The translations under genes and the position numbers were made by a program. Positions 4,205 through 44,328 of a stretch of 64,000 bases of DNA are shown one piece after another. Below the pieces are notes generated by a model. That model was given only the letters and a program-made list of their open reading frames with translations. It made no database searches and was not told the DNA's origin. Source of the stretch: Anaerolineae bacterium (lineage in GTDB: Bacteria; Chloroflexota; Anaerolineae; UBA3071); contig JARYMM010000004.1 of assembly GCA_029907105.1 (NCBI GenBank), forward strand, positions 65,364-129,363, in the 5' to 3' direction. Each line of letters begins with the position of its first letter. Within the stretch, counting starts at the first letter, position 1.

Positions 4205-4280
4205 TGTCTACCTACCTCATTCAAGGTCCACAGCTCAAAACTGTGGGGCATAGCTTCTTTTGGATTTTGAACTTTCATCT

Positions 4281-4796
4281 TTAGCTATCGTCCACCGCCC
4301 GCAGCGCCGCCAGCCAGCCATCCAGCGGCGAAGGCAGGTCCGTCTGCTCCGTCCGCTGGTGGTAGCGGATCAGTTCCACCGTGGCCGGGGCACAGCCGGC
4401 AGCAGCGGCCAGCTCGGCCCCGCGCTGCGGATGGTGCAGTTGCAGCCAGAAGGGATAGCGCCAACTGGCCGGGTCGGGCGAGGCCAGGCGGCCCAGCCAG
4501 GCAGGACACAGCGCCTGCAGCAACACGGTGGCGACCCGATGCCAGAGGCGCACGCCCTCCGCCTTGGCCACGTCGTGCAGCAGGGCTGCCGCCAAAAGCT
4601 CCGGGGTGTCCTGACCCCGTTGCCGCAAGGCATGCAGCAGGTCCAGGCTGTGACGCTGATACTGCCTCGGCATACGCCGGAAGAGCTCCGCTGCCGGGAC
4701 AGGCAGGACATGCGCTGCCAAAGCTTGCTCTTCCGATCCCACCCGCGCCGTCAAAGCCCGCCCAAACTGCCGCACCCGATGCCACACCGCTGACAT
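4281..4796 (-). CDS. HD-domain phosphohydrolase
   Basis: LLHDVAK HD motif. Confidence 0.55.
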   Translation of the reverse strand: MSAVWHRVRQFGRALTARVGSEEQALAAHVLPVPAAELFRRMPRQYQRHSLDLLHALRQRGQDTPELLAAALLHDVAKAEGVRLWHRVATVLLQALCPAWLGRLASPDPASWRYPFWLQLHHPQRGAELAAAAGCAPATVELIRYHQRTEQTDLPSPLDGWLAALRAVDDS

Positions 4797-16056: not shown

Positions 16057-16175
16057 GCCTAAATCTCTCCTGCAGTTCCCTGCTCGCGGCGGACGGCCAC
16101 GTCCGCCGCCACCCTGCTGGACATGACCGTCCAGCAGGAGCAAAGTCTGAGCCAGGAGCAAAGCCACCACGCAGG

Positions 16176-17420
16176 TCACCCCGGCACCACAATCTCGCCG
16201 CGCAGGGCGGCCCAGGCCGCCGTCAGCGGGCTGGCCAGGTACGTCTCCCCCGCCCCCTGCTTGCCGGGGAAGTTGCGGTTGCTCGTGCTCACCTGCACCT
16301 CCCCCTGCCCGGTCATGCCAATCTGCCCCGAGGCGCAGCCGCCGCAGCCAGGGTTGCTGACGATGAAGCCGGCCTCGAAGAGCGTCTCCAGCACCCCCTC
16401 GCGCAGCAGCCGCGCATACACCTGGCGGGTGGCCGGCACCACCGAGGCTGTGACCCAGGGGGCGATGTGCTCTCCCTTCACCACCTCGGCCACGGCGACG
16501 AAATCCTCAAAACGGCCATTGGTGCAGGAGCCGAGGAAGACGGAGTCGATGCGCGTGCCGGCCAGCTCCCGCACCGGCCGCACATTGGCCGGGCTGGGCG
16601 GACAGGCCACCAGCGGCTCCAGGTTGCTGATGTCCACCTCCACCACCTGGCAGTATTCAGCATCTGGGTCGGCGTACACGCCGCTCACCTCTCGCCCTGC
16701 CCGCTCCCGGCAGAAGGCCAGCACCTCCTTGGAAGGCGGGACGAAGCCGATGATGCCGCCCATCTCCGTGATCTGGCTGGCCAGGGTGATGCGGCCGGCC
16801 AGGTCGAGGGCTTCGATGGCCGGGCCGGTGAACTCGACGGCCTTGCCCAGCGCCCCGCTGGAGCCGAGCTCCCGCAGCACGGCCAGCGTCAGGTCGCGCG
16901 CCGTGCAGGGCGGGTGCAGCTCTCCCTTGATCACCACCTGCATCGTCGGCGGCACCTCGAACCAGGTCTTGCCCGTCTTGAAGGCGAAGGCGATGTCCTG
17001 ATCGCCCATGCCCTGGCCGAAGGCGCCGATAGCGCCCAAAATGTTGAGGTGCGAATCGGTGCCCACGAAGGTGCAGCCGGGATAGGCCAGCCCTTCCTCG
17101 ATGGCCACGTGCGAGCCGATGCCGGCGTCCACGTCGTAGACCCTGATCCCCTGCTCCCGCGCCCAGAGGCGGCAGAGGTGCTGGTTGCTGGCGTAGGGGA
17201 TGGTCTTGGCCGGGACGACGCAGTCGAAGGTGAAGAAGGTCTTGCTGGCGTCGGCGACGGGGCTGTTGCCGTAGTGGGTGCGGTAGTTCTGCACCACGTT
17301 GGCCCCGGCGAAATCGCGCGCCGTGCGCACGTCCAGCTCCATCCAGACGATGCGTCCCGGCGCCGCCTCCTCATCGCTGTGAGCCTGAATGATTTTTTCG
17401 ATGACGGTTTGTCCAGGCAT
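16176..17420 (-). CDS. leuC: 3-isopropylmalate dehydratase large subunit (aconitase family)
   Basis: VGTDSHL and GSCTNGR aconitase motifs, three cluster-ligand cysteines. Confidence 0.85.
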   Translation of the reverse strand: MPGQTVIEKIIQAHSDEEAAPGRIVWMELDVRTARDFAGANVVQNYRTHYGNSPVADASKTFFTFDCVVPAKTIPYASNQHLCRLWAREQGIRVYDVDAGIGSHVAIEEGLAYPGCTFVGTDSHLNILGAIGAFGQGMGDQDIAFAFKTGKTWFEVPPTMQVVIKGELHPPCTARDLTLAVLRELGSSGALGKAVEFTGPAIEALDLAGRITLASQITEMGGIIGFVPPSKEVLAFCRERAGREVSGVYADPDAEYCQVVEVDISNLEPLVACPPSPANVRPVRELAGTRIDSVFLGSCTNGRFEDFVAVAEVVKGEHIAPWVTASVVPATRQVYARLLREGVLETLFEAGFIVSNPGCGGCASGQIGMTGQGEVQVSTSNRNFPGKQGAGETYLASPLTAAWAALRGEIVVPG

Positions 17421-17423
17421 ACT

Positions 17424-17768
17424 TCATCCTTTCTGCGTTGTCTTCTTCCAGCCGCCCAGCAGCCGGCCCATCTCGGCCACCAGGCTGGCGGCATGTTGAT
17501 ATTGGCCGGGCCTGAGCCATCCCCAGCGCGCCGAGAGCCGCAGGTACAGCCGCACCTTGTCCAGGGCTGCGTCGGCCTGCTCGATCTTGGCCAGGCGGGC
17601 TTTGCCCCGGCAGTTGTTCGCCTCGATGATCAGCTCCTGGAAGTCCAGCGCCGCATCCAGCAACCGCCTGGTGACCATGAAGCGCTGGCTGCGGGGGAAA
17701 TTGTTGGTCACCGGCATCAGCCAGGTGATGAAATCGAAGGTGCGCGTGAAGAGCGGCATTTGCTCCAT
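17424..17768 (-). CDS. avd: DGR accessory variability determinant (Avd, four-helix-bundle protein)
   Basis: 114 aa; NFPRSQRFMVTRRLLDAALDFQELIIEANN pattern typical of Avd and TIGR02436; directly downstream of the DGR reverse transcriptase. Confidence 0.7.
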   Translation of the reverse strand: MEQMPLFTRTFDFITWLMPVTNNFPRSQRFMVTRRLLDAALDFQELIIEANNCRGKARLAKIEQADAALDKVRLYLRLSARWGWLRPGQYQHAASLVAEMGRLLGGWKKTTQKG

Positions 17769-17774
17769 GAAACG

Positions 17775-18851
17775 TTATCCTCTTGGCGTCTGGATGACCA
17801 GGCTCCCCAGCACCGCCCGCCGCAGCCCTTTGGTATCGCCGTAGCGGGCGTGGTTAATCCACCCCTGCACCGAAGCTGTCACCCGATCCAGGCTGATCTC
17901 CCCGGCGGCATAATCCTGCAGCAATCCCTTGAGCCGCCGGCGGTAGGCAATCCCTTTGCGCCGCTTCAGCCGTCGCTGCTGGGGGAAAACGACAAAGCCC
18001 AGGAAAGGGATGCCCTGTCCCACCGGCCGAACCTGAGCGCGTGTCTCGTGGATAGTCAGCCGCAGCCGGGCTAGTCGCTCCACGGTGGCTTCTTTCCAGG
18101 CCCACATTTCTCGCTTATCGTCACCGAAGAGCAGGAAATCGTCCACATAGCGCAGATAGGCCGGGCAGCGCAGTTCTCGCTTGACGAAGTGGTCGAAGGG
18201 ATTGAGATAGCAGTTGGCCCAGAACCGGGAGGTGAGGTTGCCGATGGGCAGGCCTCGCGGCCGGTGTATGGCCAGCAGATCGTCGTCGGGAAAGTAAACC
18301 ATCTGGTACTCTTCCGAGAGCACTCCGATGCCGCTTTCCAGGATGCGATCCACGAGCCACATGATGCCGGGGTCGGCGACCTTGTGCGCCAGAAGCTCCC
18401 GTAGGATAGCATGATCTATCGAGGGGAAGAACTGGCGCACGTCGCATTGCAGCACGTAGCGATGGCGGCGGGCGAACTGCTGGCAGCGATCGAGCGCTCG
18501 ATGCGTTCCTTTGCCCACGCGGTTGGCGTAGCTCTCCTCGATGAAGCTGTGCTCGAAGAGCGGTTCGATGACCTGGCACAGGGCATGGTGGACGACGCGG
18601 TCACGAAATGGCGCGGCGGAGATGAGACGGCGCTTGGGTTCGTGGATGTGGAAACTGCGGTAGGGGCCGGGGCGATATGTCTGCGTCGCCAGTTCCTCCT
18701 GCAACTGGATGAGGTTGTCTTCCAGGTGGTACTCGAAGCTGGCGGCAGGAGGCCGGCCTCGCTTGCCTTTGGACGCCCGGCGATAAGCGCACAACAGGTT
18801 GTCCCAGACATAGACCTGGGCCAGACTCGGAGGGAGAAGTGTCGTCGTCAT
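17775..18851 (-). CDS. DGR reverse transcriptase
   Basis: 358 aa from [12 protein letters not shown]; [11 protein letters not shown] (YxDD) catalytic motif and an [14 protein letters not shown] motif; the upstream in-frame extension of the ORF is the TR, not protein. Confidence 0.85.
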
Positions 18852-18977
18852 GGCGCATCTGGTCTTGAACTCAGACGGAGAGAAAACACCGGCGGCCCGT
18901 TCCAGGGACGCGCCCAGGGAACGGGCCGCCGGGCGGGATATGACCCCCGCCCACGTGTATTCGCCCGGCCCTGTAGC

Positions 18978-19050
18978 CCTCACCCTCCCCCCAACCCCCT
19001 CCCTCTCCCAACTTTGGGAGAGGGAGGGGGTTGAGGGGGAGGGAGAGGGG
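18978..19050. repeat. GC-rich imperfect palindrome in the TR-to-RT spacer
   Basis: ccctcaccctccccccaaccccctccctctccca-actt-tgggagagggagggggttgagggggagggagagggg. Confidence 0.55.
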
Positions 19051-19319
19051 CAGGGCGCGGCCAGGGCACGACCGCGCTGACTCTCTGAGCCTCGGTGACG
19101 AAGCGTCTTACCCAGTGCCGCGTCACATTTCCGGCAATCCGACGATGGGCTTATCCTGCTGGCGGCGAGCTGCCAATTCCGCCGGACGTGACCATCCGAC
19201 GAGAGCAGACGAGTACAGCTCACCCACTGCTCCGGCAGGACCGCCAGGTCCCGCCGCCTTTCCGCCGGACGTGGCCGTCCAGCGGGAGCTTGATTAGTGC
19301 GCCAGGAGCCCCCTGCGCT

Positions 19320-19452
19320 GGAGAGCCATGAGACCGCCACCACCCGAAACCCGTTGTTGTCGTTGCGGTTGTTCGGGTTGTTCCTGTTGCGATAGGCGCA
19401 GCGGACGTTTCTGCGATTGTTGTTCCACGTGCCGCCACGTAGCACCCGCGGC
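19320..19452 (-). repeat. DGR template repeat (TR)
   Basis: About 133 bp that match the VR except at template adenines; coding-strand AAC-rich (translates as [37 protein letters not shown]). Confidence 0.85.
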
Positions 19453-19559
19453 AGTTTCCGGTCGGCCCTACGTTCCCCCGTTGGCACGTACCAGGGGAAC
19501 GCACGACCCATGATACCGCAGCTAGCGCCAAAGCGCAAATTTCGCTGCTCGCGCGCGCT

Positions 19560-19580
19560 GAGGGGGGCACAGCCCCCCTC
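19560..19580. repeat. GC hairpin downstream of the VR (gagggggg-cacag-cccccctc)
   Basis: An 8-bp G/C stem about 65 nt 3' of the VR end on the coding strand. Confidence 0.4.
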
Positions 19581-19646
19581 AGACTCCCCCCACAGAGATC
19601 AGGGACTCAGAGTTCCAGAGACCAGAGACTCCAGAGGCCAGAGGGG

Positions 19647-19781
19647 GGAGAGTCAGGAGACCGCCACCACCCGAAACCCGAAGTTGTCGTTGCGGTAGCC
19701 CGGGAAGTACCCGTCGCGAAAGGCGCAGCGGACGTCCCTGCGATCGTCGTACCACGCGCCGCCACGAAGCACGCGCGGCGC
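19647..19781 (-). repeat. DGR variable repeat (VR) at the 3' end of the target gene
   Basis: Aligns to the TR with 18 substitutions, all at TR adenines; the 3'-terminal about 28 nt (IMH-like) is near-identical to the TR. Confidence 0.85.
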
Positions 19782-22529
19782 ATCTCCTTCAACGTCCTGA
19801 AGTTTCCGCTCCTTTTGAACGTAGCCCTGGTAATCGCCCACCCATTGCGTCAGACACCATTCCCAGACGTTGCCGCTCATGTCCAGCACACCATAGGGAC
19901 TGGCTCCGGCGGGAAAGAGGCCCACGGCGCTGGTCGTGCCGATGCCCGTGTCGCCCATGTTGCACTTGCTCTCGTCGAACTCGCCTTTCCAAGGGTAGAT
20001 GCGGCCATCGGTGCCCCGGGCGGCCTTTTCCCACTCTGCTTCCGTCGGCAGGCGGATGACGGTTCCCGGTTTCAGGTTCCAGGTTTCAGGTTTTCCCTCC
20101 CGCCAAATCCGCAATCCGCATTCCGCATTCCGCAATCTCTCCGTGAGCCAGCGACAGAAGGCCAAGGCTTCGTACCAGGTGACGCCGACGACGGGGTGGT
20201 TGGGCAGGTCGAAGACGCCGCCGTATTTCTCCGGCCCGGTGCGCTCACCCCGCCACTGGAGGCCGGCCTGTGTCCACCAGTCTTTGTTGCGGTAGCCATC
20301 GGGATCGTCCACAAACGCCTGGAATTGCTCGTTGGTGATGGGGTAGCGGGAGATGAGGTAGTCGTAGGGCAGGGGGTGCTCGTGCTGCGGCAGTTCATTA
20401 TCCCAGGCCTCCGGGTCGTGCTTCTTGTCGCTGCCCATGGTGAACGGGCCGGCGGGGACGGGGCACCAGAGGATGTCGGGCAACCCCTCCCCCAACCCCT
20501 CCCCGACACGGGGAGGGGAGAAGAGGCCCACGCCAGGACGGGGGTCGTCCAGGCGGGCCAGCACCTGTCCGGCTTCAACCCGCGCCGGCACTGAGACCCC
20601 CTCCAGATGGCGCTCGACAAAATCGGCCAGTTGTCGGGCCAGTTGCTGACGAGCAGTGTCATACCAGCCCACCCGATGCGGGGGGATTTCCAGCAACGCC
20701 CGGCCCGCCCAGGCCAGGCCAAAGGCCCGCCGGTCACCTGCCTCCGCCAATTCAGCTAACTCTTCAAGCAGGAAGCGGCGGGCCTGCTGTGGCCATTGCA
20801 GCAGGTAACCCGCCATCAGCAAGAACACCTCTAGCCACCAACTGCGCCCTGCGTGTTCCCGCAAGAAGCCAGTCCAGGCCTCACCGCGGCCGCGCAGGTT
20901 GTCCACCAGGTAGTTGGCCGCCAGGAACTCCTGCACGGTCAGGTGGTCGCCAAAGCTATATCCACCTTCGTGCTGATAGAGGATCCCGCTGCGCTCGGCC
21001 ATCAGGCTCAGGAACTCTGCCGCTTCCTTCTCCGCATCCCGCCGCCGTTCCAGGTTCAGGTATTCTTGCATGAAGGGGGCCAGGATGCGCCGCACCAGAT
21101 CCTGTTCATCCACCACGACCAGGGCATCTTGCTTCCGACGGGAGGCCTGCTCCGGCTCGGCAAGCTCGTGGGTCTGATAGGCAGCATAGGCCAGGTAGAG
21201 ACGGCGGTCTTCGGCCGGCCAACGGGCGTCGCGCAGGGAAGGCACTGCCTCAGCCCCCTCTTCTTCATGCAGCCGCTCCCCCAGGAGCACACTGACGTAG
21301 GCATGATATAACTCGGCCCGTTGCTCGGGCAATTGCCGGCCGGCATAGTGAATAATGGTCGCTGTCCAGACCATCAATGGGGTCTTGACCATTTCCTGCA
21401 ACAGGTCGGAGCTTTTGATACGCTCGACGAGCAGCCGGGCGCGCTCGGCGGCCACGTCCGGATCGGGCTCCAGGCCGGCATAGAGGCGCCTGGCAATGAA
21501 TTGCCACTGGGCCGGCGTCAGGTCACGCACCGTGGCCAGGTCAAAGCGCTCGTTGAGCTGGGCTCCGGCGTAGGCGGCCACCCGTGCGGTGACCAGGTAA
21601 CGGTTGCCCGGCCAGTCGTCGGCCAGACGTTCGATGATCTGCCGCACGAGGGCGCGGTGATCAGGGTCAGCCACCTCGTCCAGTGCATCGAGCAGCAGCC
21701 AGCAACGGCCAGCCCGGATCTGCGCCGAGAGGAAACCGTGCGGCACCTTGTCCGGGTGCCAGCGTTGGAAGTGATCGTCCACGAAACGCAGCAGGCCCTG
21801 CACATCGCGATGATATGTGTGAGGGCTCGTCTGGCAGGCGTGCTCGAAGTTGCGCAAGGCTACGAAGACCGGCAAGGGCAGGGGCGAGACGGTCAGGCCG
21901 AGTTCAGCTCGAGCCAAATCGGGCTCGGCGCAGGCCAATACGGTGGCCACCAGGCGCAAGACGGTGGTCTTGCCGCAGCCGGCCTGGCCGATGATGGCCA
22001 GGTTGCCACTCAGAGCCAGCATCTCGGCCAGGGAGATGTCGCGGCGGGCCTCGTCTCTGCTCTCTTTCTTCTCCACACCCAGAGGCGAGACCGGGCGGCC
22101 CGGTTGCCAGTCGAAACGCAAAGGGGTATAGATGCCCTCTTCGCCAAGCAAGGGAAAGCGGTCGGCCGCGCCCTTGAACTCGGAAAGCTGCTTGTAAGGC
22201 CTTGTCTCCACCAGACCGCAGGCGGAGCGCATCGTCTCCAGATAGGTGGCGACGATCGCCTCGTCATCTTCAGCAGGGCCACCGGCTGGAGGCAAGACCG
22301 ATTGCTCCAATTCTTTCAAGCGGTCTTCCAACTCTCGAATGGTTGCTTCCTCGTTTTCGATCTGATTCTGCAGGTGCAAAGGCACCATACCGGCTCCGAA
22401 GCGAGCAGCATCCAACTCCAGCTTCCGCAAGTTGCGCTCGTGCTGGGCCAGCAGTCGCTGCAGGTGCTTCTGCTCCTCAGTGATCGGATCTTCGAGGCGC
22501 GATGGTCTGAGAGTGGTCTGTGCAGACAT
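19653..22529 (-). CDS. DGR target protein: N-terminal coiled-coil, STAND (NACHT-like) NTPase, C-terminal FGE-sulfatase/C-type-lectin-fold domain carrying the VR
   Basis: Walker A GQAGCGKTT; FGE-type fold ending in RGGAWYDDRRDVRCAFRDGYFPGYRNDNFGFRVV; start at MSAQTTL with a GGAGAGGG RBS. Confidence 0.8.
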   Translation of the reverse strand: MSAQTTLRPSRLEDPITEEQKHLQRLLAQHERNLRKLELDAARFGAGMVPLHLQNQIENEEATIRELEDRLKELEQSVLPPAGGPAEDDEAIVATYLETMRSACGLVETRPYKQLSEFKGAADRFPLLGEEGIYTPLRFDWQPGRPVSPLGVEKKESRDEARRDISLAEMLALSGNLAIIGQAGCGKTTVLRLVATVLACAEPDLARAELGLTVSPLPLPVFVALRNFEHACQTSPHTYHRDVQGLLRFVDDHFQRWHPDKVPHGFLSAQIRAGRCWLLLDALDEVADPDHRALVRQIIERLADDWPGNRYLVTARVAAYAGAQLNERFDLATVRDLTPAQWQFIARRLYAGLEPDPDVAAERARLLVERIKSSDLLQEMVKTPLMVWTATIIHYAGRQLPEQRAELYHAYVSVLLGERLHEEEGAEAVPSLRDARWPAEDRRLYLAYAAYQTHELAEPEQASRRKQDALVVVDEQDLVRRILAPFMQEYLNLERRRDAEKEAAEFLSLMAERSGILYQHEGGYSFGDHLTVQEFLAANYLVDNLRGRGEAWTGFLREHAGRSWWLEVFLLMAGYLLQWPQQARRFLLEELAELAEAGDRRAFGLAWAGRALLEIPPHRVGWYDTARQQLARQLADFVERHLEGVSVPARVEAGQVLARLDDPRPGVGLFSPPRVGEGLGEGLPDILWCPVPAGPFTMGSDKKHDPEAWDNELPQHEHPLPYDYLISRYPITNEQFQAFVDDPDGYRNKDWWTQAGLQWRGERTGPEKYGGVFDLPNHPVVGVTWYEALAFCRWLTERLRNAECGLRIWREGKPETWNLKPGTVIRLPTEAEWEKAARGTDGRIYPWKGEFDESKCNMGDTGIGTTSAVGLFPAGASPYGVLDMSGNVWEWCLTQWVGDYQGYVQKERKLQDVEGDAPRVLRGGAWYDDRRDVRCAFRDGYFPGYRNDNFGFRVVAVS
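20061..20138. repeat. In-frame heptanucleotide repeat block inside the target gene
   Basis: ggttccc ggtttca ggttcca ggtttca ... cgcaatc cgcattc cgcattc cgcaatc; encodes NAECGLRIWREGKPETWNLKPG within the FGE domain. Confidence 0.6.
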
Positions 22530-22712
22530 GATACCCTCTCCTGCTCGCGGCGGACGGCCACGTCCGCCGCCTCCCTGCTTCCCCTGGTGCATAGCATAGC
22601 CAGAACCCTGAAGCCGTCGGGCTGAAAGAGCAAAGCCCTTCGGGCTAGCTGCTTTCAGCCCCGCAGGGGCTTGGCCCTCTCAGCGCGGGGCTTGCAGCCC
22701 CGCCTTCTTCAG

Positions 22713-43146: not shown

Positions 43147-43233
43147 GCCGAAGTGGCGGAATTGGCAGACGCGCACGGTTCAGGGCCGTGTGGGCTTACG
43201 CCCATGTGGGTTCAACTCCCACCTTCGGCACCA
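43147..43233 (+). tRNA. tRNA-Leu (anticodon CAG), CCA encoded
   Basis: Cloverleaf with a long variable arm; anticodon loop ttCAGgg; close to the E. coli tRNA-Leu(CAG) pattern. Confidence 0.85.
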
Positions 43234-43239
43234 GGTCAG

Positions 43240-43275
43240 AAATCCCAGGTCGGTCAGCGAGCTGGGATTTGTTGT
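43240..43275 (+). terminator. Hairpin after tRNA-Leu
   Basis: agaaatcccag-loop-ctgggattt followed by gttgtc. Confidence 0.4.
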
Positions 43276-43340
43276 CATAGGGCCAGGGGCGAGGAGCGGC
43301 ACGGCCCGCCGATTCGCCTGTGCATTGCGGAGACAGCCTG

Positions 43341-43760
43341 ATGACTCCACCCGGGCGCCGGTACCAGTCACTTCCGAGGGCATCACAGCTTATCTTGCTG
43401 GTGTCTCTGGCGCTTTGTCTGCTCTTTGCTCTGCAGATCATCGGCCAGGTTCGTGACCGCCGGCAGATGCAGGCCGCGTTGCAAGAAGCGGAACAGGAAC
43501 TGGCGCAGGCCCAGGAAATAGAGAGACGGCTGCTCGAAGAAGCGCAGAACAGGGAGATCGAACTGGAGCGTGCGGCACGTGAGGAAGTCTCCGGGGCCCT
43601 CTCCGATGAAACGATCATCGCCCCCCAATCGGCCCCGGCTCAGCGGCCAGAAAATGCCGAACCGCCCCGGCCACAGGCCGAACTGACTCCCTGGCAGCAG
43701 TGGTGGAACCTCTTCTTCCCGGCTGCCGAAGGAGAGCCCCTCGGAAAACCCTCGCCGTGA
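43341..43760 (+). CDS. Septum-formation-initiator-like protein (FtsB/DivIC-like)
   Basis: N-terminal TM followed by a coiled-coil (QMQAALQEAEQELAQAQEIERRLLEE) and a Pro-rich tail; placed downstream of murE. Confidence 0.45.
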   Translation: MTPPGRRYQSLPRASQLILLVSLALCLLFALQIIGQVRDRRQMQAALQEAEQELAQAQEIERRLLEEAQNREIELERAAREEVSGALSDETIIAPQSAPAQRPENAEPPRPQAELTPWQQWWNLFFPAAEGEPLGKPSP

Positions 43761-43859
43761 ACAGGGGCAGGCCGGCCAGAAGCAGCGGCACTGTCCTGTG
43801 CACACCTGGCAGGCGGGTGTATTTCACTTTAGTGGCGAGAGCGAGAGCCAGCCTGGCCT

Positions 43860-43992
43860 GTGTCATTGCGAGGCGCGCCCCCATTCGCTGCGCTCAGGGC
43901 ATGGTTTGCGCCGAAGCCTGCCCTGAGCTTTGCCGAAGGGCAATCTCCCACTGGCTGGCAGGAGATTGCTTCGCCTTCGGCTCGCAATGACA
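43860..43992. other. Candidate structured element with a three-stem fold, flanked by 12-bp inverted repeats TGTCATTGCGAG/CTCGCAATGACA
   Basis: Closing inverted repeat, then gctcagggca/tgccctgagc (10 bp), then a long irregular hairpin gccgaagggcaatctcc...ggagattgcttcgccttcggc; direct repeats tgcacacctggcag lie about 50 nt on either side. Confidence 0.4.
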
Positions 43993-44030
43993 TTTCCAAA
44001 AAACTGAAATGCACACCTGGCAGCCGCCGT

Positions 44031-44059
44031 TTGACGAGCAGCGGCAATCGGAGTATAAT
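44031..44059 (+). promoter_or_regulatory. Sigma70 consensus promoter for the tRNA-fMet/tRNA-Met pair (TTGACG, 17-nt spacer, TATAAT)
   Basis: ttgacgagcagcggcaatcggagtataat. Confidence 0.6.
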
Positions 44060-44069
44060 TGAATAACAA

Positions 44070-44141
<72 letters not shown>

Positions 44142-44146
44142 TCAAT

Positions 44147-44219
44147 GGCGGCGTAGCTCAGTTGGTAGAGCACGGAGCTCATAATTCCGGTGTCCCCAGT
44201 TCGAGCCTGGGCGCCGCCA
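44147..44219 (+). tRNA. Elongator tRNA-Met (anticodon CAT)
   Basis: GGCGGCGTAGCTCAGTTGGTAGAGCAC... elongator Met pattern; CCA not encoded. Confidence 0.75.
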
Positions 44220-44328
44220 TGCTACATTGAAGAGCCCCTCCATACAGCGGAGGGGCTTTCTCTTTGCCATTTGACGAAGAAGGCAGTTCGTGGCATACTG
44301 GGTTACACCATACGGGGAGAGACGGAGG

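Follow-up and report, generated by a model that had tools for sequence, protein, structure and literature searches.

A complete chromosomal diversity-generating retroelement of an Anaerolineae bacterium with a NACHT NTPase as its variable protein

The diversity-generating retroelement (DGR) of Bordetella phage BPP-1 (mtd-avd-TR-brt) is the prototype of its class, and DGRs that diversify STAND(NACHT/nSTAND1)-CLec 'antigen sensors' have been described in multicellular bacteria, including filamentous Chloroflexi (Dore et al., PNAS 2024, PMC10907252). Here we analyse 64,000 nt of an Anaerolineae (Chloroflexota) genome (assembly GCA_029907105.1, contig JARYMM010000004.1; this whole stretch, numbered from its first letter, is hereafter the window) and describe a complete chromosomal DGR in which the target gene with its variable repeat (VR), the template repeat (TR), a structured RNA, the reverse transcriptase (RT) and the accessory protein Avd follow one another on the minus strand. 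TR and VR differ in an adenine-specific pattern, the three proteins are identified, a co-varying RNA module lies by TR and these features are common to most close RT relatives. The fold of the variable domain is seen in a structural model. By analogy with the Bordetella phage system and with published work, we infer the synthesis of complementary DNA (cDNA) and its retrohoming, what the RNA elements do and a sensor function of the target. Very probably, this locus is the DGR that wrote the VR found in it. The class itself is already described, both in the NCBI name of the Avd protein and in the 2024 report on the STAND-CLec DGRs of filamentous Chloroflexi, and the locus is a further example.

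The locus and BPP-1 have homologous RT (E = 1.7e-51) and Avd proteins, adenine-specific TR-to-VR differences with an AAC-rich template, and a VR at the 3′ end of a gene encoding a C-type-lectin fold. In both, TR and VR share an identical 3′ block, structured RNA lies 3′ of TR and an inverted repeat follows VR. Whereas BPP-1 is phage-borne, is ordered target-avd-TR-brt and diversifies a tail-fibre protein, the locus described here is chromosomal, is ordered target-TR-RT-Avd and has as its target a NACHT NTPase with an FGE-type lectin domain. Motif 4 of the RT ends in SR, not SQ; 183 nt separate TR from the RNA module, whereas the structured RNA of BPP-1 is immediately 3′ of TR; and the hairpin past VR has a 3-nt loop and lies 64 nt from VR, in contrast to the GRNA tetraloop hairpin immediately downstream in BPP-1 (4–34 bp in phage DGRs).

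The STAND-CLec DGRs (PMC10907252, clade 5D, with Thiohalocapsa PB-PSB1 DGR 3 as an example; see also Kaur et al., eLife 2020, PMC7159879) resemble the locus in their targets, which combine a central NACHT domain, a DGR-diversified C-terminal FGE/CLec domain and an N-terminal extension without a known domain. The host belongs to the filamentous Chloroflexi, a group named there among the hosts, and Levilinea saccharolytica, whose species description is cited in that work for filamentous Chloroflexi, is among the RT relatives described below (L042). Clade 5D often has two target genes, whereas the 64-kb window holds one, and in a further difference from the STAND-CLec DGRs an effector or peptidase neighbour was not identified in the window. 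The Treponema denticola DGR protein TvpA (2y3c) has the same FGE-type C-type-lectin fold with VR at the C terminus, but is a lipoprotein without an NTPase domain, in a different organism and gene context.

An adenine-specific template and variable repeat

19320-19452, minus strand: TR; non-coding, with 32 adenines and, in the VR frame, 11 AAC codons and one AAT codon.
19647-19779, minus strand: VR; the final ~40 target codons, the stop codon (19653-19655) and 6 nt beyond.
19657-19680 (TR 19330-19353), minus strand: identical block of 24 nt, CGGGTTTCGGGTGGTGGCGGTCTC; candidate initiation-of-mutagenic-homing (IMH) region.

TR and VR form a gap-free, in-register direct repeat of 133 nt with an offset of 327 nt and 84% identity, and VR is the single strong match of TR in the window (blastn, E = 9e-38). 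TR lies between genes: VR ends 194 nt before it, and the RT gene starts 468 nt after it. We scored mismatches on the minus strand, the coding strand of all genes involved. An initial annotation, made from the letters of the window, had counted 18 of 18 substitutions at template adenines and named pairwise alignment with a mismatch count per template base as the check; run on the coding strand, this recount agrees. In the core (19354-19440), where 31 of 87 nt are adenine, all 18 mismatches fall at a TR adenine (hypergeometric p = 1.1e-10), and over the full 133 nt 19 of 21 do so (p = 1.2e-12), with 13 TR adenines unchanged. The differences are not spread over the four bases and, the repeat being gap-free and in register, are no alignment artefact. 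Two mismatches lie at other bases. At 19446, close to the 5′ edge, TR has G and VR has C; the annotation had taken this mismatch for the only one. The second, 19326 (G/A), is inside the VR stop codon and had been overlooked. Across 19330-19445, TR and VR have 0 mismatches at 85 non-adenine sites.

Nearly all of the changes affect codon positions 1 and 2 of AAC or AAT codons. They alter 9 of the 11 AAC codons as well as the sole AAT codon and leave two AAC codons and one GAC codon intact, so that the claim that every AAC codon is diversified was too strong; the translations of TR and VR given with it are both correct. The 31 core adenines could encode 4.6e18 DNA variants, or about 1.2e17 protein variants, and one AGA codon of the TR frame is mutable to a stop.

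The identical 3′ block, first put at ~28 nt, measures 24 nt and occurs exactly twice in the window, compared with 0 expected from shuffled sequences. This GC-rich block is a plausible IMH. The directionality between IMH and IMH* that had been read into it cannot be supplied by the identical sequence alone, because directionality requires differences between the copies, and it must therefore stem from those that start just 3′ of the block. VR/TR differences resume there within 7 nt, at 19329 (A/C) and 19326, and the homology stops at 19320/19647.

A 133-nt direct repeat 327 nt apart could in principle also arise if the 3′ end of the gene had undergone ordinary segmental duplication or gene conversion, the adenine bias then being owed to chance or to mutation pressure. 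To this explanation, we assign next to no probability, given hypergeometric p values of 1e-10 to 1e-12, a directional bias with the A's in only one copy, a DGR-type RT and an Avd adjacent to the repeat, and the same pattern at 57 of 80 related loci. The latter are the 80 closest RT loci (L001-L080) from a scan of one genome per species, nearly all in metagenome-assembled genomes of Anaerolineae or other Chloroflexota, and a repeat pair was counted as adenine-biased if at least 80% of at least 7 mismatches were at A of one copy on the RT strand. The TR/VR reading of the initial annotation is correct, and the partners expected of a DGR, RT, Avd and a target open reading frame (ORF), are all present on the same strand as the repeat pair.

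Reverse transcriptase, Avd and their relatives

17775-18851, minus strand: DGR RT; 358 aa, exact match to MDH7485141.1, with YVDD intact at aa 235-238.
17424-17768, minus strand: Avd accessory protein; 114 aa, exact match to MDH7485140.1.

The closest solved relative of the RT is the Bordetella phage DGR enzyme bRT (8ub7, E = 1.7e-51), followed by group II intron RTs (6ar1, E = 1.8e-23). Sub-threshold matches to the group II maturase model TIGR04416 (147 bits; cut-off, 300) and to models of retron and defence-associated RTs (DRTs) would allow the enzyme to belong to one of these families, with the repeat unrelated to it. We give this almost no credence: all such matches stay far short of the curated thresholds, a DGR RT leads the solved relatives with an E-value lower by 28 orders of magnitude, no intron RNA was detected with Rfam and an Avd equivalog is present. 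The group II intron RTs and maturases, the nearest non-DGR relatives, share the fingers-palm-thumb architecture; they differ in that the RT described here falls below the 300-bit cut-off, lacks a detectable intron RNA, has IG in place of QG in motif 4 and is partnered by Avd and a TR/VR pair.

Avd matches the equivalog NF033474 DivGenRetAVD with 96.5 bits (cut-off, 80) and PF22296 bAvd with 68.6 bits (cut-off, 40), and NCBI already annotates MDH7485140.1 as the DGR protein Avd. The target, RT and Avd accessions belong to an Anaerolineae metagenome-assembled genome, on a contig of 134,747 bp. The window contains only one VR, one RT and one Avd. Because the gaps between the RT stop and the Avd start (17768-17777) and between the Avd stop and the start of a LeuC-like gene (17420-17426) are only 6 and 3 nt, the aconitase-family LeuC/LeuD-like genes and the DGR genes may share a transcript. 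Upstream of the RT start, the RT frame remains open through the spacer and TR (17775-19538, minus strand), giving a 587-aa ORF from TTG; gene callers could thus yield an over-long RT 'containing' the TR peptide, and the 358 aa of NCBI are the sensible call.

The RT is 57-77% identical at the amino-acid level to those of the 80 relatives, whose loci encode homologues of Avd (78), of the FGE domain (74) and also of the NACHT region (52). Two gene orders occur in this RT clade, target-TR-RT-Avd, as here, and target-RT-Avd-TR, and several relatives have two or three VRs for one TR (for example, L008, L015, L016, L034, L044 and L050). Two sister contigs, L082 (ENA) and L083 (Logan), keep the synteny at 84-91% DNA identity, and in L082 the short gaps after RT and Avd are likewise found.

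A NACHT NTPase with a variable lectin domain

19653-22592, minus strand: target (variable protein); 979 aa from ATG 22592 in the ORF list, exact match to MDH7485142.1.
21486-21998, minus strand: NACHT (STAND NTPase) domain, aa 199-369, with Walker A GQAGCGKTT; Pfam PF05729, 35.4 bits (cut-off, 26.7).
19665-20462, minus strand: FGE-sulfatase/C-type-lectin-fold domain, aa 711-976; PF03781, E = 2.9e-56, its C-terminal end being VR.

NCBI starts the target MDH7485142.1 at ATG 22529 (958 aa), and a Pfam search of the N-terminal 190 aa from that start returned no domain match. An AlphaFold2 model of the last 289 target residues has a mean predicted local distance difference test score (pLDDT) of 94.9 and a predicted template modelling score (pTM) of 0.93, and Foldseek relates the modelled variable domain to EgtB, FGE and the Treponema DGR variable protein TvpA (2y3c, E = 2.8e-16); the relationship to TvpA is also detected at the sequence level (phmmer, E = 1.6e-12). 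On the basis of this model, the variable domain is an FGE-type C-type-lectin fold like that of TvpA. By analogy with the described STAND-CLec proteins, the NACHT (STAND) NTPase is a putative intracellular sensor, and we advance its sensor or defence role as a hypothesis. PADLOC gave the target protein no match, and neither an effector or peptidase gene among its window neighbours nor a Pfam effector domain was identified.

Within the FGE-coding part of the gene, two 7-nt tandem arrays, GGTTTCA x3.7 (20061-20093) and AATCCGC x4.6 (20106-20137; both on the plus strand), encode RNAECGLRIWREGKPETWNLKPG, which the AlphaFold2 model places in a confident β-hairpin insertion (model residues 136-149). 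As the arrays are conserved in L082, they are not a recent insertion. The NACHT-FGE linker holds an in-frame palindrome (20481-20525), CCCCTCCCC...GGGGAGGGG, that encodes SPPRVGEGLGEGL; in sequence type it matches the TR-RT spacer palindrome described below (18977-19049), and a diverged similar copy is found in L082.

A structured RNA module 3′ of the template

19055-19136, minus strand: 5′ half of the RNA module 3′ of TR; matched over its full length by covariance model R1 (60 bits, E = 2.4e-11), the only strong match in 64 kb.
18894-18973, minus strand: 3′ half of the module; a single-stranded conserved GCCGGGCGAATAC (18955-18973), an extra 22-nt hairpin and a terminal co-varying hairpin (18894-18927).
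18977-19049, minus strand: long GGGAGG/CCCTCC palindrome at the variable-hairpin position of the module.
19137-19319, minus strand: 183-nt segment between TR and module; predicted to form four ~10-bp GC hairpins closed by its own ends.

The module was defined from an alignment of the TR-to-RT spacers of 16 relatives, with the window excluded. RNAalifold finds 38 pairs in it, 27 of them with compensatory changes. Paired cells make up 92.7%, compared with 75% in shuffled alignments and 39-51% when the partners are slid, and the covariation score is 0.54, compared with 0.21 (shuffled) and 0.10-0.17 (slid). From the relatives only, we built two covariance models, R1 for the 5′ half and R2 for the 3′ half, each of which has one match in the window, both within the TR-RT spacer. 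The R2 match comprises 34.6 bits (E = 1.4e-7) for the hairpin 18927-18894 on the minus strand and a further 10 bits for the 5′ part. Rfam gave nothing above gathering scores over the locus, neither a family for the module nor an intron RNA.

In relatives, the module starts a few nt after TR. It is always just 3′ of TR in both gene orders, including those with TR downstream of Avd, and is therefore part of the TR RNA, not a leader of the RT. This agrees with published work on the Bordetella element, in which cryo-electron microscopy (cryo-EM) shows the RNA 3′ of TR to form two stem-loops, one that binds Avd and one that binds RT, and a single-stranded 'Thumb Ring'; similar elements are reported for 207 of 278 DGRs (bioRxiv 10.1101/2023.10.23.563531). 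By analogy, we infer that the module is the counterpart of the Bordetella 'Sp' RNA, and a helix-by-helix assignment of these roles would follow the same comparison.

Shorter hairpins stand at the position of the GGGAGG palindrome in four relatives (L027, L063, L025 and L077), and we reject the idea that the palindrome is an RNA-disrupting insertion for this reason and do not count it as a defect. Rfam matches of the palindrome to microRNA precursors are spurious and below gathering scores. The 183-nt segment folds at -100.5 kcal/mol (z = -4.0), and the predicted fold could keep TR and the module together. Its identity as a multicopy repetitive extragenic palindrome (REP) or miniature inverted-repeat transposable element (MITE) was not established, only a 15-nt core being common to the segment and to palindromes at 16086 and 22547.

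Elements downstream of the variable repeat

19558-19582, minus strand: GC-rich hairpin; 11-bp perfect stem and 3-nt loop, 64 nt past the end of the VR/TR homology.

This hairpin is a candidate target-side hairpin or cruciform and is conserved in L082. It is preceded by a weaker stem, in which 19643-19657 pairs with 19577-19591 and encloses 7-nt tandem repeats, and the DNA fold of the region reaches -30.2 kcal/mol (z = -3.9). The repeats themselves (19593-19643) are a 7-nt (CAGAGAC)/23-nt tandem array directly past the target stop, and the 5′ arm of the weak enclosing stem overlaps the end of VR.

A working element or a recent relic

Several observations weigh against a functional DGR. The first group concerns the RT, in which motif 4 reads IGNLTSR against the DGR signature [I/V/L]GxxxSQ: I, G and S match, and the final Q is replaced by R209. 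The signature Q is kept in all 80 related loci and in 119 of 119 database homologues, which makes R209 unique, and the equivalent residue of bRT, Q187, touches the base of the incoming dNTP. The R209 codon (18225-18227) is CGG, one transition away from CAG.

The RNA and target-side elements also depart from what is usual. The gap between TR and module is 183 nt, compared with 2-58 nt (median, 14) in 29 relatives; a scan for sigma-70-like promoters of the TR RNA found none; and the hairpin past VR does not match the phage consensus of a 7-10-bp stem, a GRNA tetraloop and a distance of 4-34 bp from VR. A TTTGCG-N18-TATCAT sequence upstream of TR (19539-19510, minus strand) is conserved in L082; it fails the scan criteria, and no promoter is claimed for it.

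In the sister contigs, the locus has decayed. L082 and L083 are without window positions 19495-19030, which cover TR and the 5′ half of the module, and without 18466-18131, an in-frame loss of RT residues ~130-240, including motif 4 and YVDD. Only short microhomology (3-5 nt; for example, CCCTG) is found at the deletion junctions, and the target contains a frameshift of 1 nt and 57 nt of inserted low-complexity sequence; neither Avd nor the LeuC-like gene is damaged. The decaying cassette spans L082:1-2460 and L083, the relatives of window 20954-17768. Because both contigs have lost TR and the RT core, the locus appears prone to decay in this lineage. Two further contigs, from another sample, bear on these breakpoints: the end of L081 (window 18466) and the start of L084 (18131) coincide with the two edges of the RT deletion in L082. 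In L081 (Logan ERR14790957), window 20767 (mid-target) is also fused to 18663 (inside RT) at 1780-1830, which is either a 2.1-kb deletion of the FGE domain, VR, TR and the RT N terminus or an assembly chimera.

Finally, other alleles were not recovered. Exact-sequence look-ups of the RT and Avd products returned no other contigs, a cluster look-up returned three related Logan/ENA contigs, none of the same species, and a metagenome scan for the 34-nt 3′ end of VR/TR found nothing. A protein search with the C-terminal 180 aa of the target gave no near-identical alleles, the best matches being one that spans the whole query at 65% identity and the L082 fragment, which covers 64% of the query at 75%.

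We treat R209 as a private substitution within the DGR RT clade, with no sign of another family. It is not grounds for such an assignment because motif 4 is only diagnostic, the defining DGR properties are all present and a bRT Q187P mutant is still adenine-mutagenic, retaining its adenine misincorporation frequency in vitro (PMC7826257). The VR spectrum comprises 9 A-to-T, 9 A-to-G and 0 A-to-C changes. Across 65 related pairs, A-to-C averages 21% and only 1 of 65 is without it (p = 0.015, uncorrected and for one allele under selection). Q209R could in principle be a functional natural variant that shifts the adenine-mutagenesis spectrum by suppressing dGTP misincorporation, which would explain the absence of A-to-C from VR. 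We regard this as improbable; if it were true, the substitution would offer an existing means of adjusting what DGR-based mutagenesis tools produce.

The sister VR bears on the timing of the last homogenisation. Between the VR of L082 and that described here, 19 of 29 mismatches are at TR-adenine columns, and between the VR of L082 and the TR described here 29 of 38 are at adenine columns, which number 37 of 140. Around 10% of non-adenine columns differ between the two VRs, whereas the TR and VR of the window do not differ at such sites between 19330 and 19445; TR and VR were therefore last homogenised well after the split from L082.

Together, these data bear on whether the element is a recently inactivated relic, in which past retrohoming is recorded and which has since been disabled by the Q-to-R change in RT, by the 183-nt insertion between TR and module or by both. 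The uniqueness of R209 among 80 genome loci and 119 homologues at a position that in bRT contacts the incoming nucleotide, a TR-module gap three times the family maximum and the outright decay of the same locus in sister lineages all speak for such a history. It is nonetheless opposed by the three intact ORFs (target, RT and Avd), by the lack of any mismatch at the 85 non-adenine sites and by the persistence of adenine misincorporation in bRT Q187P. The predicted closed fold of the 183 nt would, moreover, hold TR and module adjacent, and two relatives (L001 and L031) tolerate hairpin insertions at the same place. We consider inactivation possible though doubtful and lean slightly towards a DGR that is active today.

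Genomic setting

The flanking genes are of the housekeeping type and encode aconitase-family LeuC/LeuD-like proteins, an ABC ATPase, an HD-domain protein, an EamA transporter and a GH3 hydrolase, and G+C content is uniform across the locus and its flanks. The DGR is cellular rather than phage-borne. Tropism switching by a DGR in a phage or prophage, as known from BPP-1, would be the classic setting, and the RT is homologous to the phage enzyme; with housekeeping neighbours, a G+C content equal to that of the flanks, synteny conserved in L082 and a NACHT NTPase in place of a tail fibre as target, such an origin is very unlikely.

A GC-rich palindrome of 40 nt, GCGGCGGACGGCCACGTCCGCCGC, occurs in two copies (98% identical), at 16079-16118 and 22540-22579. 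Each copy lies just upstream of a start codon (that of the LeuD-like gene and that chosen by NCBI for the DGR target), and the pair brackets a 6.4-kb block of LeuC-like gene, Avd, RT, TR and target. A 15-nt core of the palindrome recurs in the TR-RT spacer, and L082 has copies downstream of its LeuC-like gene (4221-4326). A REP-like nature and a role as a shared regulatory hairpin are both conceivable for the palindrome. Elsewhere in the window, a tRNA-Leu(CAG) and two adjacent tRNA-Met(CAT) genes (43147-44220) are the sole Rfam matches above gathering scores.

Proposed mechanism

On the Bordetella model, an RT-Avd complex would bind an RNA that contains TR and the structured module 3′ of it and would reverse-transcribe TR, copying C, G and U faithfully and placing any nucleotide opposite A. 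The mutagenised cDNA would then take the place of VR in the 3′-terminal part of the target gene, a step in which the 24-nt 3′ block common to TR and VR and the downstream hairpin would presumably act as guides. In this way, the C-terminal FGE/C-type-lectin domain could present its ligand-binding face in up to ~1e17 variants.

Implications

Three by-products of the analysis may be of use beyond this locus. The co-varying module 3′ of TR is common to the RT clade, moves with TR in both gene orders and has no Rfam family. The RT carries a naturally occurring change in the SQ signature of the nucleotide pocket, which is invariant elsewhere. The sister lineages provide a snapshot of decay, in which deletions at short microhomologies (3-5 nt) took TR and the RT core and a frozen VR stays behind. 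For the biology of the group, the locus adds a filamentous Chloroflexota case in which a DGR would hypermutate the tip of a NACHT (NLR-like) sensor, an arrangement proposed as a bacterial analogue of adaptive antigen sensing.

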